Positions 7,815 to 28,118 of a stretch of 64,000 bases of DNA are shown in pieces. Numbering within the stretch: the first letter of the stretch is position 1; each line of letters opens with the position of its first letter. A model generated the notes under the pieces. The model saw only the letters and a list, made by a program, of their open reading frames with translations, made no database searches and was not told the origin of the DNA. Made by a program: the position numbers and the translations under genes. Source of the stretch: an uncultured Ignavibacteria bacterium (lineage in GTDB: Bacteria > Zixibacteria > MSB-5A5 > DSPP01); contig CAZSIT010000006.1 of NCBI GenBank assembly GCA_964607165.1, forward strand, positions 11,870 to 75,869, in the 5' to 3' direction.

Positions 7815-9212
7815 ATGAAATTGTCTTATCTTCGCCAAACCGCCCTAAAAATCGCCAAAAAAATCTCATTCTTAATTTTTGCTATCCTTTTGCCTGCTTT
7901 GGCTTCCGCCCAGCCACCCCCATCGCTGACCGATTCGCTGATTCTCGACTGGTGGATATTCGTTCCTGCCGGTCAAACGACCGTCTCGGTCCAAATTTCT
8001 TTGACCAATTCCGTGCCGATTTCCGGCATAACCGGACGAATGGTTTTTGACAACGGTATTTTATCCCCGATAATCGATTCCATTTCCGGCTTTGTTTCGG
8101 CAGAACGGGTTGGGCGAGGGATGGCACTCTCAAATTTCGCTGCCAGGTCACCCCAGCCGGGTGTAATTACTTTCCTTATGCTCACCAATTTTTTCCCAAT
8201 AGAGAAAATCGAGCCGGGCAGTGGCCCCGTCTGCCGGATTAATTTCAACGTCCTCACCGCCAGCGATACCACTACCTGCGTGTATTTTGAAAATGATCCC
8301 GATCCGATTGGCATCAGAAACCAGCTTTCTGACGCCAACGGCTATATCGTTATCCCCTCCCTCCAACCGGGAAGTTTGGTAATCGGGATAGGTAGTCCGA
8401 CCGGCAGTTGCTTTCCAGTCGAACCAATTGACAACACCGGCGATTTGAACTTGAATGGATTGCCATACGAAATCGGCGATTTTGTAACGTTTGAAAATTA
8501 CTTTATATATGGGGATGCAGTTTTTAACATAAACCCAACCGAGCAAGCTCTTGCTTCCGACGTTAACCGGGACGGCCTACTGCTGCGCGTTGCCGACCTG
8601 GTCTTTTTGGAACGAGTCATTCTCGGCGAGATTAATCCCCTCCCGGCACAAACTATTGCATCGGTTTCGGACACGGCTCAATTCGAAATAGTCCAAACCT
8701 CCGACCAATTGGTTCTTTCCTACGCCTCCCCAATCGATTTGAGCGGCTTTTTCCTGCGCCTGACGTTCCTTGGCACGGCTGGAGACCCAATCCGCCTGGA
8801 CTCGTCTCCCAATATGGATTTTGGCAGCCAAATATATCCCGGCGAACTGCGCTTCCTTTTGGTTTCTTCCCTTCAAACCCCTTTGGGGAAAATTCCCGCG
8901 GGCAGCGGGCCTTTGCTTTCCATCCCGTTTAACGGCAATTTAAGAGGCGTTGAAATACAAGCTTCGACCACGGAAGGGGAGGAAGTGGCAACCACCGGCT
9001 CCTATCCCATCGACAGCCGCGGGGACCTGAATGCCGACGGGCTTCTTACCCCCTCCGACGTCGTATCGGAGCTTAATTGTGCACTTGTATCCGCTTTGAA
9101 TTGTCCTCTTTCCCTGACGGATTTGACCTGTGATGGAATGCTCACCACCTCTGATGTAGTCCTTATCTTGAACGCGACATTCTTAGGAGAAACTCTACCT
9201 CAATGTCCTTGA
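7815..9212 (+). CDS. Secreted adaptor-like protein: signal peptide, cohesin-like module, internal dockerin-like module, second beta-sandwich, C-terminal double dockerin repeat (no T9SS CTD)
   Basis: GGAGG lies upstream of the ATG at 7815. MKLSYLRQTALKIAKKISFLIFAILLPALASA is a signal peptide. TTVSVQISLTNSVPISGITGRMVFDNGILSPI...GPVCRINFNVL is cohesin-like. DLNLNGLPYEIGDFVTFENYF...DVNRDGLLLRVADLVFLERVILG is homologous to the dockerin module of the two upstream genes. The C-terminus is DLNADGLLTPSDVVSELNCALVS...LTCDGMLTTSDVVLILNATFLGETLPQCP. Confidence 0.7.
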   Translation: MKLSYLRQTALKIAKKISFLIFAILLPALASAQPPPSLTDSLILDWWIFVPAGQTTVSVQISLTNSVPISGITGRMVFDNGILSPIIDSISGFVSAERVGRGMALSNFAARSPQPGVITFLMLTNFFPIEKIEPGSGPVCRINFNVLTASDTTTCVYFENDPDPIGIRNQLSDANGYIVIPSLQPGSLVIGIGSPTGSCFPVEPIDNTGDLNLNGLPYEIGDFVTFENYFIYGDAVFNINPTEQALASDVNRDGLLLRVADLVFLERVILGEINPLPAQTIASVSDTAQFEIVQTSDQLVLSYASPIDLSGFFLRLTFLGTAGDPIRLDSSPNMDFGSQIYPGELRFLLVSSLQTPLGKIPAGSGPLLSIPFNGNLRGVEIQASTTEGEEVATTGSYPIDSRGDLNADGLLTPSDVVSELNCALVSALNCPLSLTDLTCDGMLTTSDVVLILNATFLGETLPQCP

Positions 9213-9513
9213 TTTCGGTTTAGAGAAAAACCAGCAAAAGCGGAAAACGCAATCTCTGCGAGCCGCTCTTCGTTGTTGGCCAAACAGTTAACCCTTTTTC
9301 GACTTTGACTAAAATAATCCTTCGCAATTGTTGCGAAAATTCTTAACGATTAACAAAATCCGCCTTTGGAGAACCTATTGTAATTCAATAGGTTAAATTA
9401 AATTTGTTCAGGCGGTAAAATCGGCACACTTCTTGATGTTTTATTCAGTTGGCCAACCAGCTTCCTTCACCAAGGTTTTGGTTTGCGCTAGTAAAAGGGG
9501 TTTTTGTAATAAA

Positions 9514-9540
9514 AGTCCCGCCAAAAAGCGGGACTTTTTT
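9514..9540 (+). terminator. Rho-independent terminator hairpin
   Basis: agtcccgcc-aaaaa-gcgggact followed by tttttt. Confidence 0.6.
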
Positions 9541-9541
9541 A

Positions 9542-9570
9542 TTGACAAAAAACTTAAAATCGAATAGATT
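9542..9570 (+). promoter_or_regulatory. Sigma70-like promoter: TTGACA, 17-nt spacer, TAGATT
   Basis: TTGACA at 9542-9547 and TAGATT at 9565-9570, immediately upstream of the riboswitch. Confidence 0.5.
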
Positions 9571-9582
9571 GACGGTTGCAAA

Positions 9583-9745
9583 AGTTTCGGCGCTCGTCGA
9601 GCTTAATAGGGAAGGCGGTTAAAATCCGCCGCAGCCCCGCTACTGTAAGCAGCCGAGCCCGCCGCAAAAAGCCACTGTCCGCCGGAGGCGGATGGGAAGG
9701 CGCGGCGGGTTGCTGTAAGCCAGGAGACCTGCCGGAACAAGAACC
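9583..9745 (+). promoter_or_regulatory. Cobalamin (B12) riboswitch
   Basis: Conserved blocks AATAGGGAAGGCGGTTAAAATCCGCCGCAGCCCCGCTACTGTAAGC and the B12 box GCCAGGAGACCTGCC sit in the 5' leader of a TonB-dependent receptor gene. Confidence 0.85.
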
Positions 9746-9767
9746 ATAAACCTTCGCGGGAAGGAGA

Positions 9768-11963
9768 ATGGAAAGTCTATTCTCGCCCAAGGCGGGAATT
9801 TTTTTTCGCCTTCGGGAAACAGTCAAACTCCTCGTCGCCCTATTGGTGGGGACATCTGTTCCTTTATGGGCGGAATCTAACCTTAAAATCTCCGGTCAAA
9901 TTTTTGATCGTAACACTGGGCAGCCCTTAGGCAGTGTTACCGTCAGAATCATTGAAAGCGGAAATCAAACAAGCACCGATATGCAAGGGAGGTTTACCTT
10001 TTACGATTTGCCAGAAGGAAAGTATCGCCTTGTTTCTAATCCTCCCTCCTATCGTGCTGAAACACTCACTGTAAAAGTTTCCACCGCCGGAACAGCTGAA
10101 ATAGCGTTTTGGCTCGAACCGGAGCCAATAACCGGCCCACCCACAATAGTGACGGCTGACATTACAACCGAGGCAGCTTTGGAACCGAGCTTAGTTTTCA
10201 CGCGCTCGGATATGGAGAAATCGAAAAATCTTTCGATTGCACAATTTCTTTCACATCAGCCCGGGTTGGACATAAAAACGGGCGGAGTTTACGGCTCGAC
10301 GGAAGAGGTGACCATTCGAGGCGGCGCCGCCAATCAGACGCTGGTGCTTTTCGATGGCCGGCCTTTAAACTCCAATCTGGGCGGAACGGCCGATTTAAGC
10401 TTCGTCAGACTGGCTAATCTCGAAAGAATCGAGGTGTACAAAGGAAGCCAAACGGCGCGTTTTGGGCCGGATGCAGTCGCCGGTGTTGTTATTTTAACTT
10501 CCAGAAAGCCGAATCCCCAAGAGCATTTGACTCCACAAATTTCCTATGAAAAAGGAAGTTTTGGATACCAATCAACAAACTTTGAATCGAATCTTGCTTT
10601 CGTACCAAACGCATCCGCCAACATCTTTTATCAAAATCTTTCTAACCGAGGCGATTTTACTTATGCAGATAAAAACGGTGATTATGAGAGGGTGAACAGC
10701 TACGTTTGGACCAACCGGGCAAATGGAAAATTAAGCTATGGAAATTTTGAAACCGCTTTTTTCTGGGCTAAAGCCCGGCGCGGGCTTCCGGGAGCGCTGC
10801 TCCAGCTTACGCCAAACGCCCAAGAAAAAGATGAACGATTTGGAATAACCTTAAACCGGAAGCTGTATTCAAACAGGGGGTGGTTTTTTGAGCCTTCAGC
10901 GAGCTGGGATAAACTTACCCAAAGCTTCAAATTACCTGATGGATTTGTAAAAACTGACACTCGTTATAAAACTGAAAAAAGAAAGCTGGAGACGGGTGCG
11001 GGAAAACGTTTGACAAACCAAAAGTATCAAATCAGTTTTGATTTTCTCGAAAGCTCTTTAAAAGGAGAGGATTTTATCCGACCCAGTCAAAGCCTGGGAA
11101 AGACCATTCGTCGTTCGGGTGGCCTTTCCGCGGCCTTCGACCGGCAAGTGCCGTTCAAAGGCCATTTGTCGGCCAGCGCCTCGGGCGCGTCGAGAATGGA
11201 TTGGACCGACTTCACAAAGCCGGCTTACTCTCCCCTTCTTTCGGCCGCTTTGAATTATGACAAGAAAATCAAAACGAGAGTTTTTGGCTCCTGGGGTAAA
11301 AGCTTCCGGCTGCCGACTTTAGACGCGCTATTCTGGAAAGAGGATGTTTTTGCCGCCGGCAACCCGGCCCTTCTTCCCGAGCGCGCAGAAAGCCGGGAAA
11401 CGGGTTATCGAATTACTTTCCCAATCCTTGGAAAATTGAACTGGGAACAAAATTTCTTTCATAACGACCTGAAGAATCTAATTATCTGGCAAAGACGGTT
11501 TGACGGGAAGTTCATCCCTCAAAACATTTCCAAGGCCAAAATTTTTGGCCGGGAGGAAAAGGCGCTCTGGCAGCTCTCCAAAATTCTTGAACTGGAATTC
11601 AACCATACCCAAACCGAGCCAATAAACGAGGAGGATTTTGTTCTGCATCAAGGAAAACAATTGGTGTTTCGACCGCGACATATTTACAATGCGCGTATTG
11701 CCGCCAGCTACAAAATTGCCACTTTAAATCTAACTGGCCGTTGGGTAAGCAAGCGATTCACCCGGGCTGAAAACACAAAATATTTGCCACCTTATGAAAC
11801 CTACGACGCCTTCTTTGCATTAGCTCCAAAACTCCGGAAATTCAACTGGAACTTTTCTTTAGCCATCGAAAACTTTACAGGCAGACAGTATGAAATTTTA
11901 GAACGTTACCCGGTGCCGTGGCGCAGTTTCAAATTTTCGCTGGAAATCAAATGGAGGGATTAA
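9768..11963 (+). CDS. btuB: TonB-dependent outer-membrane receptor (BtuB-like cobalamin receptor) with N-terminal carboxypeptidase-regulatory-like domain
   Basis: AAGGAG RBS. Signal peptide, CarbopepD_reg-like N-terminus (ISGQIFDRNTGQPLGSVTVRI...GKYRL), plug/TonB-box region (TIVTADI...), 731 aa, C-terminal aromatic residue. A cobalamin riboswitch lies directly upstream. Confidence 0.75.
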   Translation: MESLFSPKAGIFFRLRETVKLLVALLVGTSVPLWAESNLKISGQIFDRNTGQPLGSVTVRIIESGNQTSTDMQGRFTFYDLPEGKYRLVSNPPSYRAETLTVKVSTAGTAEIAFWLEPEPITGPPTIVTADITTEAALEPSLVFTRSDMEKSKNLSIAQFLSHQPGLDIKTGGVYGSTEEVTIRGGAANQTLVLFDGRPLNSNLGGTADLSFVRLANLERIEVYKGSQTARFGPDAVAGVVILTSRKPNPQEHLTPQISYEKGSFGYQSTNFESNLAFVPNASANIFYQNLSNRGDFTYADKNGDYERVNSYVWTNRANGKLSYGNFETAFFWAKARRGLPGALLQLTPNAQEKDERFGITLNRKLYSNRGWFFEPSASWDKLTQSFKLPDGFVKTDTRYKTEKRKLETGAGKRLTNQKYQISFDFLESSLKGEDFIRPSQSLGKTIRRSGGLSAAFDRQVPFKGHLSASASGASRMDWTDFTKPAYSPLLSAALNYDKKIKTRVFGSWGKSFRLPTLDALFWKEDVFAAGNPALLPERAESRETGYRITFPILGKLNWEQNFFHNDLKNLIIWQRRFDGKFIPQNISKAKIFGREEKALWQLSKILELEFNHTQTEPINEEDFVLHQGKQLVFRPRHIYNARIAASYKIATLNLTGRWVSKRFTRAENTKYLPPYETYDAFFALAPKLRKFNWNFSLAIENFTGRQYEILERYPVPWRSFKFSLEIKWRD

Positions 11964-11967
11964 AACC

Positions 11968-13167
11968 GTGAGAAGATTTTTATCATTGTTTCTATTTATC
12001 TTCGTGTTCTTCTGCTATCACCTAATCTCTGCTCAAAGCGCTCGATTGTGGGTGGTGAATGGTTTGGCAGAAACCGCCAGCCGCGTCATTTTAGATAGCG
12101 GAAATGTATCTAACCATATAATTACGCTCGGTTTGATACCCAACCAAATAGTTTCGGAAGGCAATTTTCTCTTGGCCGTAAACTCCGGCTCCAATAATAT
12201 TCAGATTTTCAACCGCCACACGCTGGCCGAAATCGGAACCGTCGAGCTTGGGGCTAACCGAAATCCCTGGAATTTGGTTATGGCCGATTCGACAATCGGC
12301 TATGTGACTAATCTGGTAACCGGAACGGTGTCTAAGTTCAACCGGTTGAGTAGAACAGTACTGAAAGAGTTTTCGGCGGGTCAATCTCCAGAAGGTATTA
12401 CTTATGCCAAAGGGAAAATTTGGGTTTGCAATACGGCATTTAATCCCAACAATTTTTCATACGGCCAAGGCGAAATAGCGGTAATTGACCCGGTAGCCGA
12501 TTCTGTCGTGAAGAAAATAAACGTGGGAACCAATCCACAGGCCATTAAGCAGGCGCCGGATGGAAAACTCATCGCTGTCTGTACGGGAGACTTCGGTTCG
12601 GTCAGCGGTACGCTCTATGTTATTGACCCAATTACGGAAACCGTAACGGATAGCATTCTGACCGGAGGCACCCCCTCCACCGCTGCGGTCACCCACACCA
12701 ACATCGCCTATCTGCCGGCGGGCGGTTTTGTGGGCAGCGGTCTGCTGTTCAAGGTGAACCTGAATACAAAAACGGTTGAACGCGGCCCGGGAAATCCAAT
12801 TTTGGTGGGAACGGGAGCGACGGATGCCATCTACGATATTGACAGCAATTATGTTTATGTAGCCTGTTTTTCGGACGGAACGGTAAGAAAAATAAACTCC
12901 GCCGACTCGGTGGTAACCAGTTTTTTGGCAGGCGATGGCCCGGTTTCACTGGATATCGCCTATCCTTTTCCGCTGGGAGACTTGAATGGAGATGGCCTGT
13001 CAACCTCCGCCGATGCCGTGATTTTGCTCAACTGCGTCTTTTTGGGATGCGCGCCGCCCCCCCGAAATTCCCAAGCCGATGCCAACCGGGACGGCCTTTG
13101 GACCTCCGCCGACGTGGTGTGCGAACTAAATCACGTTTTTCTGGGAAGCCGATTGCCCTGCCGTTGA
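11968..13167 (+). CDS. Secreted YVTN-family 7-bladed beta-propeller protein with C-terminal double dockerin repeat; candidate BtuG-like surface B12-capture protein
   Basis: Signal peptide. Contains the IGYVTN motif and repeated 40-residue blades. C-terminus DLNGDGLSTSADAVILLNCVFLG...DANRDGLWTSADVVCELNHVFLGSRLPCR. The gene starts 5 nt after btuB, inside the riboswitch operon. Confidence 0.6.
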   Translation: MRRFLSLFLFIFVFFCYHLISAQSARLWVVNGLAETASRVILDSGNVSNHIITLGLIPNQIVSEGNFLLAVNSGSNNIQIFNRHTLAEIGTVELGANRNPWNLVMADSTIGYVTNLVTGTVSKFNRLSRTVLKEFSAGQSPEGITYAKGKIWVCNTAFNPNNFSYGQGEIAVIDPVADSVVKKINVGTNPQAIKQAPDGKLIAVCTGDFGSVSGTLYVIDPITETVTDSILTGGTPSTAAVTHTNIAYLPAGGFVGSGLLFKVNLNTKTVERGPGNPILVGTGATDAIYDIDSNYVYVACFSDGTVRKINSADSVVTSFLAGDGPVSLDIAYPFPLGDLNGDGLSTSADAVILLNCVFLGCAPPPRNSQADANRDGLWTSADVVCELNHVFLGSRLPCR

Positions 13168-13179
13168 GAAAGGAGCGAT

Positions 13180-13530
13180 ATGAAAAAACTTTTCCTTATA
13201 ATTACGATTCTGACCCTAACGATTAGCTGTGGAACAAAGGAAAAAACAGATACATCCGCGCAGCTTGACACCACCCTGACCGTGAGCTATTTTGGCGCCC
13301 AGGGTAAAACGGTGCTCAAACTTCTGGAAACTTCTCACAGAATAGAAAAGAAATCTTCCTCTATTGGAAGTTTTGTGGAATCGATAGATGGCGTGAAAAA
13401 TCGTTCCAATCGTTTTTGGCTCTACTATGTGAATGGGAAAAAACCGGATGTGGCTTCGGATCGATATACGACTCACACAAACGACACCGTTGAATGGCGT
13501 TTTGAAGCCGCGATAAAGGAGGAAAAATGA
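13180..13530 (+). CDS. DUF4430-like small lipoprotein (domain family associated with cobalamin uptake loci)
   Basis: MKKLFLIITILTLTISCG resembles a lipoprotein signal. FWLYYVNGKKPDVASDRYTTHTNDTVEWRF matches the DUF4430 W.YyVNG...Y.l.dgD.i.W.y pattern. Confidence 0.55.
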   Translation: MKKLFLIITILTLTISCGTKEKTDTSAQLDTTLTVSYFGAQGKTVLKLLETSHRIEKKSSSIGSFVESIDGVKNRSNRFWLYYVNGKKPDVASDRYTTHTNDTVEWRFEAAIKEEK

Positions 13531-14021
13531 TTTATCTATTCGCTTTGCTTGCCGTAGTCTTGAGGCTTTTGCCCCACGCCCCCAATTTTGCCCCGATGGG
13601 AGCTTTGGCGCTTTGGGCCGGAATGTCGGGCGACAAAAGAAAAGTTTGGATTCCCTTGCTGGCAGTTTTCTTCAGCGACTTATTCCTGGGTGGCTACCCC
13701 GGTTTTGTTTGGGTTTATGCCTCATATTTTTGCATATTTTTCAGCGGATATTTAACCAAGCAAACTTCCGGCTTGGCCCGATACCTCGGAGCGCCAATAG
13801 CCGGCGCCTCCATTTTTTATTTGGTTTCCAATTTTGGGGTCTGGGCCGGCGGCTCGATGTATCCGGCGACCCCGGGCGGCTTGGCCCAATGCTATGTGGC
13901 CGCCCTGCCGTTTTTTCGCAATACCCTGGCGTCGGATGCCTTGTATTTCAACGCTTTCATCCTCCTTAACAAAATCTTTGCAACGCTAAAAAATTATCAA
14001 TTGGCGTTAAGGTTTCGTTAA
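13527..14021 (+). CDS. Small polytopic membrane protein, possible ECF-type S-component / BtuM-like solo vitamin transporter
   Basis: ATGA start/stop overlap with the upstream gene. 164 aa with about 5 hydrophobic helices. LPHAPNFAPMGALALWAGM is reminiscent of S-component motifs. It is the last gene of the B12 riboswitch operon. Confidence 0.4.
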   Translation: MIYLFALLAVVLRLLPHAPNFAPMGALALWAGMSGDKRKVWIPLLAVFFSDLFLGGYPGFVWVYASYFCIFFSGYLTKQTSGLARYLGAPIAGASIFYLVSNFGVWAGGSMYPATPGGLAQCYVAALPFFRNTLASDALYFNAFILLNKIFATLKNYQLALRFR

Positions 14022-14035
14022 AAAAATAAAAAAGT

Positions 14036-14070
14036 AAAAAGCCCTTCTCTTTGGAGAGAAGGGCTTTTTT
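14036..14070. terminator. Bidirectional rho-independent terminator
   Basis: aaaaagcccttctc-tttgg-agagaagggctttttt between convergent genes. Confidence 0.7.
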
Positions 14071-14119
14071 ACTTCGAACGAAGTTTTCGAAAAATTACAG
14101 CATGCGCTAAACGAACCCG

Positions 14120-14827
14120 TCAGTTGCGAACCGAGGTTGAATCACCGGTTTTAGGTGAACCCAGAAATTTCCAATCTGCAAAAGCCGGCATCGTATCTTT
14201 GAAGTTGCTTTCCAGGAAAAACTCGGAGGAGAAAAGAACGGCGACAAACAAATGATTATTCTTTCGAAATACGGTGACAATTTCCGCCCGGAATTCCGAA
14301 CCGGTAATCGGGCCGGCTTTTTGTTCGGAGAAATACTCGGTCATATTCCGTAAAAGGGTCAGCTGCACGCCCGGCTGCCCCGCCACGCTAACCCGGCTGC
14401 GCTTAATTTCCTTGTCGCTGGGGCGCCAGTCCAAAACCTTCAAATATTCTCCTTTGCCTTTCCAGCTCGTTTCCCCAAAAAGACGGTCCAAGAATTGATC
14501 GGGGGAAAAAGAAAGCGTGTCGGCCAGAATCAAAAACCTTGGGCGGGTTCCCGCATTGGAACGTTCGTTGGAAAACCTTGGATTAATTTGAACGTCGCTT
14601 TTTTCCATTGCCACTCGAATTAAGGAAGGCTCATCTTTCACGCGTGCCTTCCATGTTTTCGGCACCGAGGTGGAATAACCAATAAGCGAGTCGCTGAAGG
14701 TATTCTTCTCCAGAACGCCGGTTTTAATCTTATCCTTTGAGAAAGTAATTGGGCTGAAAGCAAACAGGCCAAGCAGGCCCATCAAGAAAATAGACGTTGA
14801 ACGCCGCATACACTCCCCTTTGCTCAA
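14120..14827 (-). CDS. Secreted hypothetical protein (signal peptide), co-operonic with the M48 peptidase
   Basis: MRRSTSIFLMGLLGLFAFSPITFS is a signal peptide. The true start is probably 14809. I recognise no domain. Confidence 0.5.
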   Translation of the reverse strand: MSKGECMRRSTSIFLMGLLGLFAFSPITFSKDKIKTGVLEKNTFSDSLIGYSTSVPKTWKARVKDEPSLIRVAMEKSDVQINPRFSNERSNAGTRPRFLILADTLSFSPDQFLDRLFGETSWKGKGEYLKVLDWRPSDKEIKRSRVSVAGQPGVQLTLLRNMTEYFSEQKAGPITGSEFRAEIVTVFRKNNHLFVAVLFSSEFFLESNFKDTMPAFADWKFLGSPKTGDSTSVRN

Positions 14828-15636
14828 GGTAATCGCTTCTTCATTTGTGAATAGGTTTCTTTCCCGGATTTTCCACCGGCTGGCAATTTTTTGATTTCCA
14901 TTTCCAATTTAGCTATTCGCTCTTGGGTCTGCGGATGGGTGGCGGTCAGCTTTTCAAAAGTCGAACGCTCTCCTTTTTCACCGGCGCCCAGTTTGTTAAA
15001 CATCCGGAGCGTCCCTTCCGGATTATACCCGGCTCGCTGCATATAAACGAGCCCAAAACGGTCAGCCTCCAGCTCGTGGCTGCGGCTGTAACCGGTGAGA
15101 GCGATGCCTAAAACAACGTTTAGCGCCTGCTGCGCGGCCGGGCTTTTGTCGCCAAAAGCCAATGCTTCCACGGCGGAAATGCCGACCACCGGCTGCATCT
15201 GACGGACGGCATGGCGGCCATCCACATGCCCGATTTCGTGGCCCAAAACGGCCGCCAGCTCGGCTTCATCATCCATCAATTTTAAAAGGCCTGTGTATAT
15301 GAAAAGCGGCCCGCCCGGAAGCGCAAAGGCGTTGATTTCTTTTGAATCAAGAACCGTGAAACTATAGCGGACGTCTTTTCTTTCCGAGAACTGTGCCAAA
15401 GATTGGCCGATTGCGTCAACATAATTTTGCCAGGCGCTGTCGGCCAATACTTTGGACTGTGATAAGACCTGTTGTTGGGCCTGTTTGCCCATTGAGGTTT
15501 CCGTGCCGCTTCCAATAAAGACCAAACTTTTCTTGCCCCCCGGCCCGGTTGTGGCGCAAGAAAGAGAAATCAAAGCTATCGCATTGAAAAAAACGGAAAG
15601 CCGCTGGCAGCTTACGCTGGGTAAGTAAGCCTTCAT
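14824..15636 (-). CDS. M48-family Zn metallopeptidase (YcaL/BepA-like, periplasmic)
   Basis: HEIGHVDGRH HExxH motif, signal peptide, 270 aa. Confidence 0.75.
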   Translation of the reverse strand: MKAYLPSVSCQRLSVFFNAIALISLSCATTGPGGKKSLVFIGSGTETSMGKQAQQQVLSQSKVLADSAWQNYVDAIGQSLAQFSERKDVRYSFTVLDSKEINAFALPGGPLFIYTGLLKLMDDEAELAAVLGHEIGHVDGRHAVRQMQPVVGISAVEALAFGDKSPAAQQALNVVLGIALTGYSRSHELEADRFGLVYMQRAGYNPEGTLRMFNKLGAGEKGERSTFEKLTATHPQTQERIAKLEMEIKKLPAGGKSGKETYSQMKKRLP

Positions 15637-15671
15637 TCTTATTTTAAGATATAGTTTTTTATCGAGCGGTC

Positions 15672-15702
15672 AAATAAAAAAGCCCCCGCCTCGGCGGGGG
15701 CT
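15672..15702 (-). terminator. Rho-independent terminator for the GH57 operon
   Basis: On the minus strand, agcccccgcc-gagg-cgggggct followed by tttttatttg. Confidence 0.65.
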
Positions 15703-15810
15703 TGTCCTCAAAAAAGGGTCCTATTTAACTTCCTCGACAGCTTTAACGGCAATAGCCATACTGTCGCCAAAGCTATGCACGGTACCGGTAACCCTAAGTA
15801 GCTTAAAAAA

Positions 15811-20562: not shown

Positions 20563-20881
20563 ACTGCACCTCGTTTCTTTCATACAAAAACTCGAATTTA
20601 GAGCTTAATTTCCTTATGTCAAACGCTTTCTGACATATTCTAAACGAGCTTCCCCCTAAATCCTTACCTCTATCAACACCTACGCACCACTAAGTTAAAC
20701 AAGGCCGCCCCGAAGGTCAAGTGCTACGTGGCTGCAAAAGGCAACAAGGACAACCTACAAAGAAGGGCTTGGCAAGTTTTTCAAACAACTCGAAAACCAT
20801 AAATTCCCTACCTCAACAAACTTATTTTCTTTACTTTCCACAAAATGAAAATGTTTAGAAAGATAAAAAGAGAAGAAAAGT

Positions 20882-23107
20882 ATGAAGGCGTCAAAGAATA
20901 ATAGGACCCAACCGCAAATCTTCAATAAGGCAAAAGCTTGGGCGCTGGGACTTGTTTTGCTATTCAGCCTGTCCATTGCCTTGCGGCTGGCGGTCTTGGC
21001 GCAAAGCCGGGGGACGGTCGCGTTTGAAACTCCGGTTCTGGACTCACGATTTTACCTGGAGGCCGGCCAACAAATCGCCCAGGGTAGTAACCCGTCTAAC
21101 CGGCCCTATTTCATGAATCCCGGCTATATCTGGACGGTGGCTTTATTCAGCAGGATTTTTGACGACCCCAAACTTCCACTCCTTATTTTTCAGATTATAA
21201 TCGACTCTCTTACCTGTTTATTAACGGCGGTTTTAACCCGCCGGCTCTTTGGCCAATTAGCCGGGTTGGCGGCCGGAACGCTATTGGCTGCCAACGGTTA
21301 TCAGATTCTTTCCGCCACACGAATCCTGCCGGAAACCATCGCCGCTTTTTTACTGGTGGTTTTTGTCATCATACTTGTCCGAACCACAGAAAAACCGGCG
21401 GGCATGCGGCTATTTTTCTCCGGCACGCTCCTGGGGCTCTTATCGTTGCTTCGAACCAACGCCCTGCTAATTATTTTATTTGCTTTCGCTTTCTTTGCCA
21501 TTACCTGGAGAAAAGACCGGTTGGCGAAAACGGCACAAAGAATTTTGCTGTTCGCAACTGGAGTCGCAATCATTATTGCGCCGGTGACTATTAGAAACGT
21601 AACCGCAGGAAAAGACCGGGTTTTAATAGCTTCAAGCGGCGGGGTGAACTTCTATTTAGGTAACGTCACGGAAAGTGACGGGCGCTTTATATCTTTGAAT
21701 CAACTTCCCCTTGCCCCCGGCCAATTCGACGACGACCCCAGCGGCGGACGATTCGAGAGAACCATTCAGGCCTTTGCCGAAAAACAGGAAGGCCGTCCGC
21801 TGAAACCTTCGGAAGTGTCGGCTTTCTGGATGCGTAGGGGATTAAAGGAGATATTCGATCATCCAACGGACTGGATTTTTCTCCTGTTTCGAAAAACTTT
21901 TCTCTTCTTCAATTCTTTTGAAATTCCGCAGATTGACAACCTGTATTTCCTCAAACAATACGTCCCCATTCTCAAACCCTTGAGCTTCATTTCAAGGATA
22001 CTTTGGCCCTTAACGTTATTCGGTTTTCTTTTCCTGCTTAAAAAACCAAGCCATTCAAGCGCGCTTTTATTGGTGTTTATCGGTTATGCGATTTCGGTGA
22101 TTCTCTTTTTTGTTACCGCCCGCCACCGGCTTCCGGTGGTGCCGCTGGCTGCCTGTTTTGCCGGCTGGGCGATATCCTTATTTGTCGTCCAAATACGAAA
22201 GTGGGAGTCAAAGCCACTTTTCCTAAAGGGCACGGTTCTGGCTGTATGCGGCATTGTTGCCAACCTAAATCCGGCCGTTGGCCAGTGGGTGCCGCTCGAA
22301 TCGGAGGCATCTGCCCAAAGCTGGTTTAGCCCAAGCGCCGAGTATTTGGACTTTCCCAGTCAATACAACAACATGGCGGCTCTGCTTTTGGAGAAAGGGG
22401 AATTTGTTGGCGCAGAAACTGAATGCCGTCGAGGTTTAGCGTTCAAGCCTTACCACCCTACCCTGCTTTACAATTTAGGGCGGGCCTTGGTGGCCGAGCA
22501 AAAATACTCCGAGGCCGGGCAGGTATTGGAGCAAAGTCTAAATTTTCAACCCAACAACGCCGAAGTTGCAGCCCTTTTAGGAGAAACCCGCTACAAAGCC
22601 GGCGACTTAAAAGGGGCGCGCGATGCGCTGGAACGGGCGGTGAGCCTCTCACCGGCTTTGGCCGGCGCCTGGAACACACTGGGGCCAACTCGTTTCCAAT
22701 CGGGGGACACCGTGGGAGCGCTCCAAGCTCTGCAAGAAGCTGAACGCTTAGCTCCCGGATGGTACCAACCCTGCTATAACAAGGCAATACTGCTAACGCG
22801 TCTTAAACGTTATAGGGAGGCTCTTGCCGTTCTCGATTCGCTCTCCTTGCTCTATCCGGCGAACCGCGAAGTAACCCTGGCGTTGGCCAATTCTTTAGTC
22901 GGCGCCGGGCAATTCAGCCGGGCCGATAAAATTCTTAACGACCTGATTGCCAAACATCCGGATGATCTCGGCGCCCTGCTAACTTTGGCTGAACTGAACT
23001 TAAACCGGGGAGAGAAAACTCAAGCGCGAGTCTTCGTTTTGCGCGCGCTTTCGATTAATCCCCAGAGCCGGCGCGCATTGGATTTGCTAAGGGAGACGAC
23101 TAAATAA
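20882..23107 (+). CDS. Polytopic GT-C-like (ArnT/PMT-type) membrane glycosyltransferase domain fused to C-terminal TPR repeats
   Basis: About 11 TM helices in the N-terminal 450 aa. The C-terminus has multiple TPR-like repeats (AxxLxxxG/YxxA). Confidence 0.55.
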   Translation: MKASKNNRTQPQIFNKAKAWALGLVLLFSLSIALRLAVLAQSRGTVAFETPVLDSRFYLEAGQQIAQGSNPSNRPYFMNPGYIWTVALFSRIFDDPKLPLLIFQIIIDSLTCLLTAVLTRRLFGQLAGLAAGTLLAANGYQILSATRILPETIAAFLLVVFVIILVRTTEKPAGMRLFFSGTLLGLLSLLRTNALLIILFAFAFFAITWRKDRLAKTAQRILLFATGVAIIIAPVTIRNVTAGKDRVLIASSGGVNFYLGNVTESDGRFISLNQLPLAPGQFDDDPSGGRFERTIQAFAEKQEGRPLKPSEVSAFWMRRGLKEIFDHPTDWIFLLFRKTFLFFNSFEIPQIDNLYFLKQYVPILKPLSFISRILWPLTLFGFLFLLKKPSHSSALLLVFIGYAISVILFFVTARHRLPVVPLAACFAGWAISLFVVQIRKWESKPLFLKGTVLAVCGIVANLNPAVGQWVPLESEASAQSWFSPSAEYLDFPSQYNNMAALLLEKGEFVGAETECRRGLAFKPYHPTLLYNLGRALVAEQKYSEAGQVLEQSLNFQPNNAEVAALLGETRYKAGDLKGARDALERAVSLSPALAGAWNTLGPTRFQSGDTVGALQALQEAERLAPGWYQPCYNKAILLTRLKRYREALAVLDSLSLLYPANREVTLALANSLVGAGQFSRADKILNDLIAKHPDDLGALLTLAELNLNRGEKTQARVFVLRALSINPQSRRALDLLRETTK

Positions 23108-23155
23108 AATCGGGATTTCAAAACGCTATGTAGTTTTGACGTCGAAGATTTAATT

Positions 23156-25414
23156 TTATCCGCTCAAGGTTTTACTTTTTACTTCAAGCAACCACTTTTG
23201 AAATTCCGTCTCTTTCCGGATTTCATCCAGGAACGGGTTGTATTCCAAAAAGACCCATAAAATTTTGTTTTCTTTTATTCCCCTTTTTATCCATTCAAAA
23301 GCCTTAGCTTGGTCTTGCAGAAGAACGTAGGTCAAAATCAAGTTTTCTACGACATCTTCATCCAACGACATCTCTTTCAACGCTTTCTTCAACTCTGCTT
23401 TTGCCTCGGACACTTTTCCCAGCCCGGCATGGATAGCCGCCAGGCCCGAAACTCCCGCCGGATCGCCGCCGTGGACGCTAACGTACTTGTGCATACATTC
23501 CAAAGCCGCGGCGTAATTTCCTTGAAAAAAATAAATTCTGGAAAGTATGAAATTTCCAATTTCCTGATGGGCCGGTTCTTTGGATTGCAAAACGCGCTGA
23601 ATACTCGCTTCCGCCTGAAGGAAATTATTTAAGCCCAGATAGAAGCGGGCCAAAAGCCACAAGGCCAGATACAGGGTGGGGTCGTTTTCGTAGGCCAACC
23701 GATACTCTTGCTCGGCTTTCTCAAATTCTCCCAGATAGAGATAGGTTGTACCTAAATTAGCCCGAGCCACCGCCAGCGTTGTATTAAGTTGCAAGGCCCT
23801 GCGGAGATGCTCTTTCGCCTTTTTAAATTGCCAGACCTTATAGTAATACGTGCCTAACGCTTTGTGGGCTTCGGCACTATAAGGATCTTTATCCACCGCT
23901 TGCAGGGCGGCAATTTCCGCATCTTTAAGAATTTGCTTGTCGCTTTCAAAACCCCGATCAATCAATTGAATGTAGCTGTCCGCCAAACCCGCATACGCCA
24001 GCACGTAATCCGGGTCAATCGTCAGAGCCTGCCTGAAAAACTGAACGGCTCTCCATAAGTCTTCTTTGTCGTACTTATGATACAAACTTCTCCCTTTAAG
24101 GTATAATTCGTATGCCTCCAAGCTGCCCCGATACCGCTGGCCAATATCTTCTTCTTCCTTTTTGGAAACTTTTCCCTTTATCGCCCGGGCAATATCCTTG
24201 GCTAATTCTTCCTGAAGTTCAAAAACCTGCTTAAACTCACGGATGTACGTATCGCCCCACAAGTTAGCCAGCGTTTTGGGATCTACCAACTGGGCCGTAA
24301 TTCTTATGCGCTCCCCTTGCTTCCATACCGATCCCCGTAAGATATGGTCAACTTTCAATCGTTCCGCAAGAAAGGGAATATCGACTGGTTTATCTTTAAA
24401 AGGCCGAACCACATCGCGCGCTCGTACTTGAACACCCTCAATTTTGGTTAAATCGTTGATTATTTCTTCGGTAATTCCGTCCGAGAAGTATTCGGTCTCT
24501 CGGTCTTCGCTTTTATTTTCGAAAAACAGAACCGCGATAGACTTTTGGGCCGGTGGTTCCAGCTCTCTTTGTTCCGTCGTCCGCCCTTTGGTTTTATCCT
24601 TGAATCCTTTTAGTTCGGCCAATAAATCTTCGGTGTCTTTAAACCGATCCTCTTTTTTCTTTGCCAGGGCTCGGTCGACAATCTTCTGAAGCTCAACCGA
24701 AGCCTGCTGATTGTATCGACTTAGCGGAAGGGGATCGTCAAATTGAATGGCGTAATAAATGGCCGCCTTGTGTTCCCCATCAAAGGGAAGGCGGCCGGTA
24801 ATCATTTCGTACAAAACTACCCCAAAGGAGAAAATATCGGTTCTGGCGTCAATCTCCTTATCGCCACGGGCTTGCTCGGGAGAAGTATATCCCTCCGTTC
24901 CCATCGTCACACCGCTTTGGGTCAACCGGGAAGCATCCTTGAGCCGGGCCAACCCAAAATCGATTAACTTTACTTGGTCGTCCCGATAAAGCAGAATATT
25001 CTTTGGGGTGATATCGCGATGAGTCACTCCGACTCGGTGAGCGGCGTTCAATCCTTCGCAAATTTTAATCCCAATATCAACGGCCCGGCCTATTGGAACG
25101 CCTGAATGACCAATTGATTCTTTTAAAGATTTTCCGTCAATATACTGCATGGAAATGTAGTACCGGCCGTCAAATTCGCCGACGTCATAAACGGTTATAA
25201 TATTTTGATGGTCCACAGCGGCAATGGATACCGCCTCCCGTCGAAATCGGCTCTTGGCCTCTTCATCGGAACTGTATTCTGAATTTAAAACCTTGAGCGC
25301 CACTTTACGGGGCAAATTAAGGTCTTCGGCCAACCAGACCACTCCAAAGCCGCCCCGGCCCAGCTCTTTAAGTATTTTGAAATGGGAGAAGGTTTGGCCT
25401 ATCATCGGGCCCAT
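23156..25414 (-). CDS. Ser/Thr protein kinase with C-terminal TPR array
   Basis: GRGGFGVVWLA Gly-loop, AHRVGVTHRDITPKNILL catalytic loop, DFG, then TPR repeats. The probable start is MGPMIGQ (the ORF extends to 25513). Confidence 0.8.
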   Translation of the reverse strand: MGPMIGQTFSHFKILKELGRGGFGVVWLAEDLNLPRKVALKVLNSEYSSDEEAKSRFRREAVSIAAVDHQNIITVYDVGEFDGRYYISMQYIDGKSLKESIGHSGVPIGRAVDIGIKICEGLNAAHRVGVTHRDITPKNILLYRDDQVKLIDFGLARLKDASRLTQSGVTMGTEGYTSPEQARGDKEIDARTDIFSFGVVLYEMITGRLPFDGEHKAAIYYAIQFDDPLPLSRYNQQASVELQKIVDRALAKKKEDRFKDTEDLLAELKGFKDKTKGRTTEQRELEPPAQKSIAVLFFENKSEDRETEYFSDGITEEIINDLTKIEGVQVRARDVVRPFKDKPVDIPFLAERLKVDHILRGSVWKQGERIRITAQLVDPKTLANLWGDTYIREFKQVFELQEELAKDIARAIKGKVSKKEEEDIGQRYRGSLEAYELYLKGRSLYHKYDKEDLWRAVQFFRQALTIDPDYVLAYAGLADSYIQLIDRGFESDKQILKDAEIAALQAVDKDPYSAEAHKALGTYYYKVWQFKKAKEHLRRALQLNTTLAVARANLGTTYLYLGEFEKAEQEYRLAYENDPTLYLALWLLARFYLGLNNFLQAEASIQRVLQSKEPAHQEIGNFILSRIYFFQGNYAAALECMHKYVSVHGGDPAGVSGLAAIHAGLGKVSEAKAELKKALKEMSLDEDVVENLILTYVLLQDQAKAFEWIKRGIKENKILWVFLEYNPFLDEIRKETEFQKWLLEVKSKTLSG

Positions 25415-25617
25415 TATCTTGCGGGCTCTATCAAAAAAATCATCCGGCAAACTTCGACAGTTCAATAATTTTACACAAAAATGAATAATAACAAATTGGG
25501 CAATGTTAAACAACCGAATAAAGCTTAACGGTCAATCTGAAAGGGCCGCCAACCCGTCGGGAAAGCCCCAAACCAATTGGAGAAAAATGAAGAACCGGAT
25601 AAATGCGATGAAAACAA

Positions 25618-25693
25618 TAGCCCCGGCCCGATTCGAACGGGCGACCAACGGTTTAGGAAACCGCTGCTCTATCCAATCTGAGCTACGGGGCCC
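25618..25693 (-). tRNA. tRNA-Arg (anticodon CCT)
   Basis: The minus strand reads GGCCCCGTAGCTCAGATTGGATAGAGCAGCGGTTTCCTAAACCGTTGGTCGCCCGTTCGAATCGGGCCGGGGCTA. Cloverleaf with anticodon loop TTCCTAA, T-loop TTCGAAT, G1-U72 wobble, no encoded CCA. Confidence 0.85.
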
Positions 25694-25736
25694 TAAACCA
25701 AAAGTAGAAAATGGCCGCCGGAAAAACAAGCGGCGC

Positions 25737-28118
25737 TTAGATCTCCGTGCAGACAGGCCCCAAGGGGATTCCTAAAAACGCGTAGTTTAAAAGGATGATT
25801 ACGTCAGCCGAGGTTAATAGACAATCGCCGTTAAAATCTCCCTGCGCGGGGGTGAGCACCGGGGAACCGAGGAACACGGCATTCATATAAATGACCACGT
25901 CGGCAGCATTCACGTTGCCGTCGGTATTGAAATCCCCCCGGATGGGGGCGCCCGAAACGGCAAAGTCATCTATTCCCCCTTCGACATTGGAGTCTCCCTG
26001 CCGGTCGGAAACGACCGCCCGGAAACGCATATTATTGGTCACCGGCAGAAGGCCGCTAAGGGTAAACTGCTTTAAAGCCCAGGTGTTTTGGGTAAAACGA
26101 TATTTTTCCAAAGAGACCCAGGTCGAGCCGCCGTTGTTGGAAATCTCGGTTCGAATGGTGTCCTGGGTGGGATTGGCACCCCCGTTGTTGGAAAACCAGC
26201 GCCAGTAGGATAAAACCGGGTTTAGGTACCCGGAAAGGTCCATAATCGGTGAATACAAGGTCGTTTTGCCGGCATCCACATCGTGGTCTTGAAAGGCCTG
26301 GTTAGGTTTAAGCTGGCCGGTGATATAGCACATTTGCCCGGGAATGGCGCTATGGTCTGCGCCTGGCTGCGTTTGGAAATTGACGTCATTATAATCGGCA
26401 AGCGGTATAACCCGCTCCCAGATGCCGGCCGTCGCATCATCGGCTGAATCGCCTATTGTCCAGCCCTGGTCAAATTCGAGCAGGTCGTTATATCCGGGCG
26501 CAAGCTGGTAATTGCGGCTAACCACTCCGCTGGGTGGGACCGTCAAAGTTTCCGCCTTGGTCACCAATCCCCACTTGCCCGCAAAAATTGCCAAAGACAC
26601 TCCCGCCGGGACCGTGAGCGAAAAATTGCCGGAAGCATCGGTAGTATCTTCAAACAAGATGTCGTCGGCAACCCCCACCCGGACGCCGGAGGGAGAAAGA
26701 GAAGAAGCCGCCAAGCCCAAAACCGCCGCCGTTCCGGAAAAAGTGCCAGTGGGCAAAGGAGTTAAAGCAACATTTAAAGTTACGCTATCCGACAAAACGG
26801 CATTGACCACAACTGTGTCGGTTACGAAGCCGAACCGATTTACTTCTATTTGCCTTGGGCCATCCACGGTACGGATGGAGAAATGCCCGTTGGCTTCACT
26901 CAAAACCGACTTATCCACGTCGATTAAGCGGACTTGCGCGCCGGGAATCGGCATTCCGCTGCCCATTTCTGTGACCTGGCCCACAATTTTCCCGGCTTTG
27001 GCATTGTTAAAGCTAAAAACAAATAGGCCGTACTTTCTATCATAAGCAGTGATGACACCGGAATTGAAGTACGGGTAAACGTCCCAGCAACCGTCAAACC
27101 CGCCCGCGTCGAAGTCTGAAAAAGTATCATAACTCCCAACTTCGACAGGGTAGGTCGGGTCCTCAATGTCAAGAATCCTGATTCCCTCCGAATAATAAGC
27201 AAGATAGGCATAGTTACCTTTTACAAAAACATTGTGCACGGTGCGGTTGGGTGCCGCTTCGTACGAACCCACCTGGGTGATGGAGGCAGGGAAACGCACA
27301 TCCCAGACCAAGAGGTGGCCGCCGGGATTAACCTCGTCGGTTGTAAAAAGATATTTCCCGTCTTCGGTAGTCCAGGTATTGTGCGTAAACGCACCCGGAT
27401 ACAATACATCTGCGAGACGAACTGGAGCGGATTTATTGGCGATGTTTACGGCCGAAAACCCGCCGCCCAACCAGGCAACGTAGGCGGTGTCCCCTTTGAC
27501 AAAACTGTCGTGAGATTGCTTAAGCCCCCCTCCTCCAGCGGGAGGAGCCAAATGCGAAACCTGCAACGGGGCGGTTGGATTGGCCAGGCTCACAATCCAC
27601 CAATCGTCGGAGGCCCCGTTCATTCCCAAGTAGGCGTAGTCCCCGTCAATATGAACGGTATGCGCTCCGTTGGGCGCTGTGGAATTCGCCGCCAGCGAAC
27701 CGGGATATTGACCGACCGTAGAAGCGGTATATGGATTTGAAAGATTGATAATCTGCAGAGCGGCCCGCGTACTTCCTCCCCCTTGATTAACGGCATAGGC
27801 CCAGCGTTGATAGGTTCGCACCTGCTTTAAATCAGAAGCACCAGACGCTATGGAGATTGTCTTCGCCAAAACCGGAACGCTCGGGTTAGTTATGTCAACA
27901 ATGTCAAGTTGAATCCCGTTAGCCTCTGGCGCCGACGCCCGGCAGACTAAAGCAAATTCCCGGCCGATTGAATCGGTGTATCCCCAGCCTCCTCTGGTAG
28001 GGCCCGGCCTATTGGAAAGGAGAGTTATATTCTTAATCTGAGCCGACGCCGGGAAAGAAAATAGAAAAACGGAAGTCAAAACTGTAAGGCTAAAAAAAGC
28101 TCTCTTAAGGCGGTACAT
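25737..28118 (-). CDS. Secreted LVIVD-repeat beta-propeller (choice-of-anchor-B-like) protein with carboxypeptidase-regulatory-like domain and C-terminal double dockerin repeat
   Basis: GAGGAG RBS before the ATG at 28118 (MYRLKRAFFSLTVLTSVFLFSFPASA is a signal peptide). Propeller repeats. GKIVGQVTEMGSGMPIPGAQVRLID is CarbopepD_reg-like. C-terminus DFNTDGNVNAADVVIYMNAVFLG...DFNGDCLLTSADVIILLNYAFLGIPLGPVCTEI. Confidence 0.65.
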   Translation of the reverse strand: MYRLKRAFFSLTVLTSVFLFSFPASAQIKNITLLSNRPGPTRGGWGYTDSIGREFALVCRASAPEANGIQLDIVDITNPSVPVLAKTISIASGASDLKQVRTYQRWAYAVNQGGGSTRAALQIINLSNPYTASTVGQYPGSLAANSTAPNGAHTVHIDGDYAYLGMNGASDDWWIVSLANPTAPLQVSHLAPPAGGGGLKQSHDSFVKGDTAYVAWLGGGFSAVNIANKSAPVRLADVLYPGAFTHNTWTTEDGKYLFTTDEVNPGGHLLVWDVRFPASITQVGSYEAAPNRTVHNVFVKGNYAYLAYYSEGIRILDIEDPTYPVEVGSYDTFSDFDAGGFDGCWDVYPYFNSGVITAYDRKYGLFVFSFNNAKAGKIVGQVTEMGSGMPIPGAQVRLIDVDKSVLSEANGHFSIRTVDGPRQIEVNRFGFVTDTVVVNAVLSDSVTLNVALTPLPTGTFSGTAAVLGLAASSLSPSGVRVGVADDILFEDTTDASGNFSLTVPAGVSLAIFAGKWGLVTKAETLTVPPSGVVSRNYQLAPGYNDLLEFDQGWTIGDSADDATAGIWERVIPLADYNDVNFQTQPGADHSAIPGQMCYITGQLKPNQAFQDHDVDAGKTTLYSPIMDLSGYLNPVLSYWRWFSNNGGANPTQDTIRTEISNNGGSTWVSLEKYRFTQNTWALKQFTLSGLLPVTNNMRFRAVVSDRQGDSNVEGGIDDFAVSGAPIRGDFNTDGNVNAADVVIYMNAVFLGSPVLTPAQGDFNGDCLLTSADVIILLNYAFLGIPLGPVCTEI

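Follow-up and report, generated by a model that had tools for sequence, protein, structure and literature searches.

The clostridial type I dockerins (Pfam: PF00404; PDB: 4dh2, 2vn6 and 1ohz) are the closest described relatives of a C-terminal tail found on three proteins encoded in a 64-kb stretch of DNA from an uncultured Zixibacteria-like bacterium (contig CAZSIT010000006.1). This whole stretch is referred to as the window, and the three genes as A, B and C, see Table 1. Like the clostridial dockerins, the tail has about 65 residues, is located C-terminally on secreted proteins and consists of two F-hand repeats of ~22 residues, in which DxNxDG....D loops are followed by helices; its predicted fold superposes on theirs at 2.2–3.5 Å. 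However, the tail sits at the extreme C-terminus, ends in PxPC, contains 2, 4 or 6 paired cysteines and has a DVVxxLNxVFLG helix. Its cargo consists of propellers, beta-helices and Ig-like domains and not of carbohydrate-active enzymes, and its host belongs to a diderm candidate phylum. We refer to it as the Cys-dockerin tail, and we suggest that it would dock its carriers onto cohesins at the cell surface.

Proteins encoded next to gene A, and gene A itself, resemble the adaptor and anchoring scaffoldins of cellulosomal bacteria (A. cellulolyticus ScaA/ScaB; C. thermocellum CipA X-Doc and SdbA/OlpB). By analogy, gene A would have the architecture of an adaptor scaffoldin, with a cohesin and the dockerin tail in one chain. 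A rarer dockerin type that is restricted to the scaffoldin-like proteins is paired with an X module, recalling the type II X-Doc dyads, the genes are clustered, and the anchoring proteins combine cohesins with a domain for cell-surface attachment. However, this domain is here a type IX secretion system (T9SS) C-terminal domain (CTD) on the outer membrane, while the described scaffoldins use S-layer homology domains or sortase on the Gram-positive wall. The X module also follows the long dockerin here, and the cohesins number one or two per protein instead of forming long tandem arrays.

A T9SS-anchored cohesin scaffoldin with dockerin-bearing cargo has been inferred in the Cloacimonadota 'Ca. 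Stygibacter' (PMC8542988). Both hosts are candidate phyla of the Fibrobacterota-Chlorobiota-Bacteroidota group, with C-terminal dockerins on proteins with signal peptides and a cohesin scaffoldin ending in a T9SS-type CTD. However, the cargo of 'Ca. Stygibacter' consists of hydrolases and peptidases, its scaffoldin has tandem cohesins and carbohydrate-binding modules, and neither a Cys-stapled terminal subfamily nor nutrient-capture cargo is described for it (PMC8542988). In a literature search we found no paper linking Zixibacteria with dockerins, cohesins or cellulosomes, and none on Cys-stapled dockerins. It can be added that dockerins outside cellulosomes are already known.

Three secreted proteins share one tail

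The three open reading frames (ORFs), 7815..9212 (gene A), 11968..13167 (gene B) and, on the minus strand, 25737..28118 (gene C), are all present in the window, and each ends in a tail of ~65 residues with two Ca-loop-plus-helix repeats: ...RGDLNADGLLTPSDVVSELNCALVSALNCPLSLTDLTCDGMLTTSDVVLILNATFLGETLPQCP in A, ...LGDLNGDGLSTSADAVILLNCVFLGCAPPPRNSQADANRDGLWTSADVVCELNHVFLGSRLPCR in B and ...RGDFNTDGNVNAADVVIYMNAVFLGSPVLTPAQGDFNGDCLLTSADVIILLNYAFLGIPLGPVCTEI in C. An earlier note, made by reading the DNA, had described these tails with two repeats each and a cysteine near the end, and the ORFs, a six-frame scan and an independent profile all agree with it. The last cysteine is the second residue from the C-terminus in A (QCP) and in B (PCR), and the fifth in C (VCTEI). 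The six-frame scan with a regular expression confines the motif to these three ORFs within the 64 kb. A hidden Markov model (HMM), built from 90 tails on other metagenome contigs with the window and a syntenic contig excluded, matches only A, B and C among the 643 ORFs of the window, see Table 1 for E-values. This confirms that the recurrence of the tail in the three genes is far beyond chance.

The repeat pattern proposed earlier stands as a consensus, while individual repeats deviate from it at one or two positions. The first repeat of A ends in ALVS instead of FLG and the second has DxT, the first repeat of B has DAV, and the second repeat of C has GDC instead of DG.

Each of the three proteins has a signal peptide of the signal peptidase I type, and their cargo domains are mutually unrelated. 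The start codon of gene C is backed by an exact database match, which is found on one 4-kb Logan contig only, and those of A and B by orthologues; an exact database look-up of the gene B protein gave no record. The domain matches agree with the cargo named in the earlier note, i.e., a YVTN-type propeller in B and LVIVD repeats together with CarboxypepD_reg in C. Gene C also matches the choice-of-anchor B model TIGR04312 with 142.2 bits (curated cutoff 100). In TIGR04312 and related proteins the anchor is a T9SS CTD, a PEP-CTERM or an LPXTG signal, and the tail of gene C fills the same slot. However, a dockerin is a folded module for protein-protein docking and is not consumed by a sortase-like enzyme.

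The tail resembles a single type I dockerin

Dockerin_1 is the only Pfam family for a Ca-binding motif that matches A, B and C. The score is above the gathering threshold of 22.9 bits for the tail of C (23.2) and below it for A (14.0) and B (20.7). No EF-hand or TSP_3 match is found in the three proteins at E<=0.1. As read from the sequence, the tail contains two tandem units of ~22 residues, in each of which a helix comes after a Ca loop of 12 residues (DxNxDGxxxxxD).

The structure of the gene C tail was predicted with AlphaFold2 from an alignment of 47 sequences. The model has a pLDDT (predicted local distance difference test) of 88.3, and DSSP assigns helices to residues 22–34 and 54–66, directly after the loops. 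In a Foldseek search against the PDB, the top 39 matches are all solved dockerins, mostly of type I, with template modelling (TM) scores of 0.6–0.79 and root-mean-square deviations (rmsd) of 2.2–3.5 Å. Calmodulin-like EF-hand structures appear only at E>1 and with TM scores of about 0.2.

Judged from this model and the profile matches, the tail is a single type-I-like dockerin module with two F-hand repeats. The likeness to type I dockerins noted earlier is thereby upheld. However, one dockerin consists of two repeats, so the term "double dockerin" used in the earlier note is a misnomer.

Three other identities of the tail were considered and rejected. The tail is not a T9SS CTD, as neither the T9SS model TIGR04183 nor Por_Secre_tail matches any of the three tails, which are helical and not beta-sandwiches. 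It is not a PEP-CTERM-like signal, as a hydrophobic helix with a basic cluster is missing: the tails end in LPQCP, LPCR and PVCTEI without a hydrophobic stretch, show no features of PEP-CTERM, LPXTG or GlyGly-CTERM signals and have no NCBIfam match. Finally, it is not an EF-hand or thrombospondin type 3 (TSP3) repeat, as no such profile matches the three proteins at E<=0.1 and the top structural matches are all dockerins.

An abundant and strictly terminal subfamily

In an exhaustive search of 1.84 billion representative sequences, a profile of the three tails matches 9,520 proteins at E<=1e-3, of which 642 reach E<=1e-10. Among the top 147 proteins bearing the domain, it lies within 6 residues of the C-terminus in 79. 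The shared consensus is [RK]GD[LM]NxDGxLTxxDVVLxLNCVFLGxGxCxxxxADxNCDGxLTxxDVVxELNxVFLGxPxPC. A metagenome scan with seven close tails adds 131 relatives from 74 loci; some of these contigs represent one population assembled from two samples. Together, the 74 loci and the window contain 118 tail ORFs, and in 112 of these the tail lies within 8 residues of the stop codon, always with a cysteine among the last six residues (112/112). Clustering at 90% identity leaves 84 different tail proteins (ORFs of at least 150 residues). Large contigs can hold as many as 9 tails within 77 kb, or 7 within 35 kb. Thus, the tail is not confined to the three genes in which it was first noticed but recurs widely on diverse and unrelated cargo.

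The named relatives of the tail comprise five from 'candidate division Zixibacteria' or 'Zixiibacteriota' and two from one 'Limisphaerales' metagenome-assembled genome; one of them is already annotated as 'dockerin type I repeat-containing protein'. Zixibacteria also account for the homologues of gene A. In a scan of genome contigs, the three-tail alignment picks up nothing but generic dockerins, among others from Clostridia and Planctomycetota.

The cargo represents 56 Pfam families and is mostly non-catalytic. FG-GAP is the most common family (23 of 82 proteins), and the others include BNR/Sortilin propellers, HYR, CarboxypepD_reg, BACON, beta-helices, NosD and an M6 peptidase. Within the window, the FG-GAP protein at 35509..36846 has no tail. 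Most tail proteins carry a signal peptide, and none of the 64 with a recognisable one has a lipobox. Pfam detects the tail at E<=1e-4 in only 13 of the 82 proteins, and in 20 of 51 in a second set. On this sequence evidence, the tail is a distinct, abundant and strictly C-terminal dockerin subfamily that Pfam mostly misses.

The cysteines of the tail occur in pairs

The 94 unique terminal tails of the metagenome loci were used to analyse the cysteines. The terminal cysteine, C4, is present in all of them (94/94) and is followed by 0–4 residues. C3, at the fourth position of the second Ca loop (NCDG), is found in 89/94, C1, at the end of helix 1 (LNC), in 77/94 and C2, in the linker (GxC), in 66/94. 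C1 and C2 clearly occur together (both in 66 tails, only C1 in 11, only C2 in none and neither in 17; p = 1e-11), and where C2 is absent an alternative cysteine position in the linker is occupied. A third pair (p = 2e-8) is formed by positions ~4–5 residues before the first loop and two residues before the second. The number of cysteines per tail peaks at 2, 4 and 6, it is even in 82% of the tails, and tails with two cysteines retain C3 and C4. The first data set shows the same pattern.

The window tails include variants of this scheme. In gene B and its orthologues C3 is absent (NRDG), and a cysteine in helix 3 (VVCELN) is found instead, in addition to C4; the orthologues P0001 and P0104 share the cysteine pattern of the gene B tail. 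In gene C and its orthologue P0092, C3 has moved to loop position 6.

Because the cysteines co-occur in pairs and their counts are even, the pattern indicates that the terminal cysteine is one half of a disulfide, which would tie the C-terminus to the region of the second Ca loop, with up to two further staples in the same module. The co-occurrence also argues against a free attachment or lipidation site. Thus, the terminal cysteine, whose role the earlier note had put up for testing, behaves as a structural disulfide partner and not as a residue for attachment, and a lipidated terminal cysteine was rejected as a candidate on the same grounds.

The scaffoldin-like proteins P0156 and P0159, which share a module order described below, end in another dockerin subtype, ...FGLGPPPPC...MFNAGPPPVPCP, with a cysteine one residue from the end. 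The C-terminal cysteine staple would thus extend beyond the DVVxxLNxVFLG subfamily.

Cohesin-like modules next to the tail

Two large ORFs precede gene A. The first, cut by the edge of the window, encodes an HYR-repeat surface protein (w307), in which a Cys-rich HYR-like unit of ~80 residues recurs at least 10 times in near-identical form; a very high cysteine content is general among the proteins that this organism secretes. Its syntenic orthologue has 1882–1934 residues with HYR and FlgD_ig matches. The second (w4627) encodes a protein of 1018 residues that passes the T9SS model. Both contain a common 'WEFFTYR...ADINN' module, and in the PDB the matches of its family profile, A4, are all cohesins, 1g1k being the best (E 3.6e-4). 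Precomputed Pfam Cohesin (PF00963) matches are present in the homologues P0156 and P0162, and the orthologue of the 1018-residue protein has a faint Cohesin match as well as FlgD_ig.

The cohesin-like module of gene A belongs to a different family, and its profile, A3, also matches only cohesins in the PDB (best ScaB, 3l8q, E 2e-7). An AlphaFold2 model of gene A reaches a pLDDT of 65.7 overall and of 70–90 in the X module and the tail. In Foldseek it matches best to 3l8q, a type II cohesin dyad (E 1e-9; 434 columns aligned), and next to ~40 single cohesins. The cohesin-like module itself, with a moderate pLDDT of about 60–78, aligns to 5nrm_A (TMt 0.65, rmsd 2.5 Å). The sequence profile of the X module has no significant match in the PDB. 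Given its hhalign match to A3 (82% probability, E 1e-5) and the structural match to the dyad, the X module may tentatively be read as a reduced cohesin-like sandwich. The orthologue P0151 is 87% identical to gene A and has the same start.

Between the cohesin-like module and the X module lies a long dockerin-like module. Its first loop, GD[LI]NLNGxxxEIxD, is one residue longer than the canonical one, and the X module always follows it. It is limited to scaffoldin-like proteins, with 8 ORFs across the window and the ~890 kb of tail-bearing loci.

The HYR-repeat protein, the 1018-residue protein and gene A thus share one scaffold of cohesin-like, long dockerin-like and X modules. This scaffold ends in a T9SS CTD in w307, w4627, P0154, P0157, P0158, P0160 and P0162, and in a Cys-dockerin in gene A, P0151, P0072, P0152 and P0153. 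The alternation parallels that between anchoring and adaptor scaffoldins of cellulosomes, and it is direct evidence, at the level of sequence, that the tail sits in an anchor slot. It also fits the suggestion in the earlier note of a swappable anchor, as does the choice-of-anchor B match of gene C. The same note had pointed to a cohesin-bearing protein or T9SS cargo as a possible partner, and cohesin-like modules are indeed encoded next to the tail, one set in a pair of T9SS-anchored proteins and another in gene A. The order of the T9SS-cohesin genes, gene A and the B12 operon described below is kept in the 87%-identical relative.

The N-terminal part of the 1018-residue protein contains a domain of ~185 residues (residues 49–235) with the pattern PDPRDSxIIE...ITNKDSL...SGGAY...YHSxSPDxF...DIKFDSV...VNFVKG. 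At least 20 further proteins share this 'PDPRDS' domain, often as the sole cargo, and almost all of them have a Cys-dockerin end; among the carriers are P0113, P0143, P0144, L064:1031-1852, L076:7870-8703 and L081:124-1029. It matches nothing in Pfam or the PDB and has no significant hhalign match to either cohesin-like profile. It could be another unit for docking or self-assembly.

Proposed docking to surface cohesins and its alternatives

We suggest that the tail functions by Ca-dependent docking to surface cohesins, and put the probability of this at about 60%. A tail-bearing protein would be exported by Sec and would fold, load Ca and form its disulfides in the periplasm. The C-terminal dockerin would then plug, non-covalently and Ca-dependently, into the cohesins of T9SS-anchored or adaptor scaffoldin-like proteins. 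The HYR-repeat protein (..4563) and the 1018-residue protein (4627..7683) would be fixed to the outer membrane via their T9SS CTDs, with gene A acting as an adaptor. The result would be the surface display of non-enzymatic cargo such as propellers, beta-helices, Ig-like adhesins and a BtuG-like B12 catcher. Candidate routes over the outer membrane are the type II secretion system (T2SS) or co-export with T9SS substrates.

Several points weigh against this reading. The assignment of the cohesin partner is guilt by association, and the cohesin-like module of gene A scores 17 bits, under the Pfam Cohesin (PF00963) cutoff of 24.1. Across the ~890 kb around 115 other tail genes, the two cohesin types are confined to the syntenic contig and two further loci, and a large set of cargo proteins would have to share a few cohesins. 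The scaffoldin-like proteins have a second dockerin type of their own, which could be the true ligand of the cohesins. No outer-membrane route is evident for the tail-bearing cargo. Finally, the disulfides are derived statistically from co-occurrence among related sequences and not from coordinates.

The alternative that survives best, although we consider it unlikely, is a dockerin-fold Ca-binding module that works without a cohesin, either as a stabilising cap or by binding lipopolysaccharide, a polysaccharide or another protein. Peer and colleagues reportedly showed in 2009 that dockerins without known cohesins are widespread, and a cohesin-free role is suspected for many orphan non-cellulosomal dockerins. 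In the sampled loci the tails far outnumber the detectable cohesins, and Pfam recognises a cohesin in no more than 2 of 51 cargo proteins. No conserved partner gene adjoins the tail genes: across the 74 loci the only recurrent non-tail neighbours are T9SS-CTD proteins and a common kinase-like family, and no dedicated partner or processing enzyme is found. However, few scaffoldin genes serve many scattered dockerin genes in cellulosomal bacteria too, and the few, clustered cohesin genes here would be comparable. Further, three to six cohesin-fold modules lie within 9 kb of gene A, gene A fuses one to the tail, and the tail alternates on one scaffold with a bona fide surface-anchoring domain.

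The same alternation, with the tail in the place of the T9SS CTD, could also be read as the mark of a true C-terminal sorting signal, recognised and perhaps cleaved or modified at its terminal cysteine by a dedicated machine as for T9SS CTD/PorU, PEP-CTERM/exosortase or LPXTG/sortase. The strictly terminal position (112/118 ORFs), the invariant cysteine 0–4 residues from the end and the presence of the tail on choice-of-anchor cargo would all agree with this. However, the tail has the alpha-helical fold of a dockerin and lacks the profile matches and end composition of these signals, the terminal cysteine co-varies with internal ones as expected for disulfides and not for a free thiol, and no candidate processing enzyme recurs in the flanks. 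A sorting signal is therefore very unlikely in our view. What remains of the sorting or anchoring tag in the earlier note is the anchor slot shared with the T9SS CTD, while the sorting signal is not borne out.

A generic EF-hand or TSP3-like Ca repeat that resembles a dockerin by convergence is hardly credible, since the sub-threshold Dockerin_1 scores of A and B and the EF-hand matches of the family member P0009 stand against a repeat length, spacing and helix pattern canonical for dockerins, the lack of any such profile match in A, B and C, and a structure search that returns dockerins.

Docking to cohesins can be extended to a more elaborate model, which we regard as quite improbable. T9SS moves folded proteins, and Cys-dockerins that fold and are oxidised in the periplasm could dock there onto cohesin-bearing T9SS substrates and hitch-hike over the outer membrane. 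A non-covalent lattice on the surface would then arise by daisy-chaining of proteins with both cohesin and dockerin, such as gene A, and of the many small proteins consisting of a 'PDPRDS' domain and a Cys-dockerin, and proteins for nutrient capture, among them the BtuG-like B12 binder, would be displayed on it.

A BtuG-like protein with a tail

In Bacteroides, BtuG is a surface-exposed lipoprotein that caps the receptor BtuB and is held by an N-terminal lipid (PMC10404256). As for Bacteroides BtuG (8PTD, 8BLW; PMC10404256), the propeller of gene B comes directly after a TonB-dependent receptor, starting 4 bases downstream of it, in an operon that is headed by a cobalamin riboswitch and has a DUF4430 gene downstream. 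The synteny of the DUF4430 and DUF6580 genes is conserved in a relative. The gene B propeller has TIGR02276 and DUF5074 matches. In a phmmer search the best PDB match is an archaeal YVTN S-layer propeller, and BtuG1 (8PTD/8PTF) is found at E 4.4e-5 and chain B of the BtuB-BtuG entry (8BLW_B) at 1.5e-4 (entries described in PMC10404256; bioRxiv 10.1101/2024.02.16.580637). The likeness to BtuG is weak but specific.

With the riboswitch, TonB receptor and propeller in this order, gene B is in the BtuG position, and it is likely a BtuG-like B12 catcher. The Zixibacteria-like genome would thus have, at 9571..14021, a locus for B12 capture of the Bacteroides type. Unlike Bacteroides BtuG, gene B has a C-terminal Cys-dockerin, and neither its signal peptide nor those of its orthologues contain a canonical lipobox; the signal peptide of P0167 lacks any cysteine. 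As a BtuG-like protein would work at the surface, the absence of a lipobox and the presence of the tail suggest that the lipid anchor was exchanged for the tail.

Between gene A and the riboswitch, at 9516..9545, a GC-rich hairpin precedes a run of T (aaaagtcccgcc...gcgggactttttt), which points to gene A and the B12 operon being transcribed as separate units.

Features of the window

Table 1. Coordinates of the tail genes, their modules and the neighbouring features in the window.
Feature	Position	Strand	Composition or evidence
HYR-repeat surface protein, cut by window edge	1..4563	+	translation; jackhmmer; A4 profile
Its cohesin-like module	3070..3741	+	
Its long dockerin-like module	3724..3930	+	
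Its X module	3946..4275	+	
Its T9SS C-terminal sorting domain	4306..4560	+	
T9SS-anchored scaffoldin-like protein, 1018 aa	4627..7683	+	TIGR04183 38.6 bits (cutoff 23); also has a Big_9 domain
Its 'PDPRDS' domain	4771..5331	+	
Its cohesin-like module	6187..6861	+	
Its long dockerin-like module	6844..7050	+	
Its X module	7063..7392	+	
Its T9SS type A sorting domain	7432..7671	+	
Gene A, 465 aa	7815..9212	+	signal peptide, cohesin-like module, long dockerin-like module, X module, Cys-dockerin tail
Cohesin-like module of A (aa 31-205)	7905..8429	+	Pfam Cohesin E=0.0069, 17 bits; profile A3; Foldseek 5nrm_A
Long dockerin-like module of A	8439..8645	+	GDLNLNG..EIGD ... DVNRDG..RVADLV; weak PDB dockerin matches; model helices aa 220-270
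X module of A	8661..9008	+	~115-aa beta-sandwich, pLDDT 80-90
Cys-dockerin tail of A	9018..9209	+	4 Cys, ends LPQCP; independent HMM E 2e-28
Cobalamin riboswitch	9571..9750	+	Rfam RF00174, 115.4 bits (gathering 31.5); heads operon with gene B
TonB-dependent receptor (BtuB position)	9768..11963	+	Plug and CarboxypepD_reg; TonB_dep_Rec_b-barrel in orthologue
Gene B, 399 aa	11968..13167	+	signal peptide without lipobox, BtuG-like YVTN beta-propeller, Cys-dockerin tail
Cys-dockerin tail of B	12973..13164	+	4 Cys, ends LPCR; HMM E 4e-25
DUF4430 gene	13180..13530	+	Pfam; completes riboswitch operon with DUF6580 gene
DUF6580 gene	13527..14021	+	Pfam
Gene C, 793 aa	25737..28118	-	signal peptide, choice-of-anchor B/LVIVD propeller, CarboxypepD_reg, unassigned region, Cys-dockerin tail
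Cys-dockerin tail of C	25740..25940	-	2 Cys (loop-2 GDC, terminal VCTEI); HMM E 1e-20

The rest of the window has housekeeping content, with no genes for disulfide-forming Dsb proteins or for T2SS or T9SS machinery. Two features outside this list can be mentioned. A further T9SS-CTD protein, with a BACON_2 domain, is encoded at 37993..40017, and the ORF 42340..45303 encodes a large single-chain restriction-modification enzyme similar to Eco57I/MmeI (type IIG-like), with a TaqI_C specificity domain.

Implications

Four things appear to be new here: a sharply defined, disulfide-stapled, strictly terminal dockerin subfamily that Pfam largely misses; the scale of this subfamily and its non-enzymatic cargo in Zixibacteria; an adjacent cluster of scaffoldin-like genes with T9SS anchors; and the BtuG-like cargo. 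As the Pfam models largely miss the subfamily, tail proteins are under-annotated in metagenomes.

If docking to surface cohesins is correct, cohesin-dockerin assembly would reach from Gram-positive cellulosomes to general surface display in an uncultured diderm phylum. A T9SS domain would then serve as the anchor, and the cargo would be mostly non-enzymatic, including a likely B12 catcher of a kind that is lipid-held in Bacteroides. It raises the concrete question of how docked cargo passes through the outer membrane. Small disulfide-locked dockerins of this type could also serve as parts for surface display.

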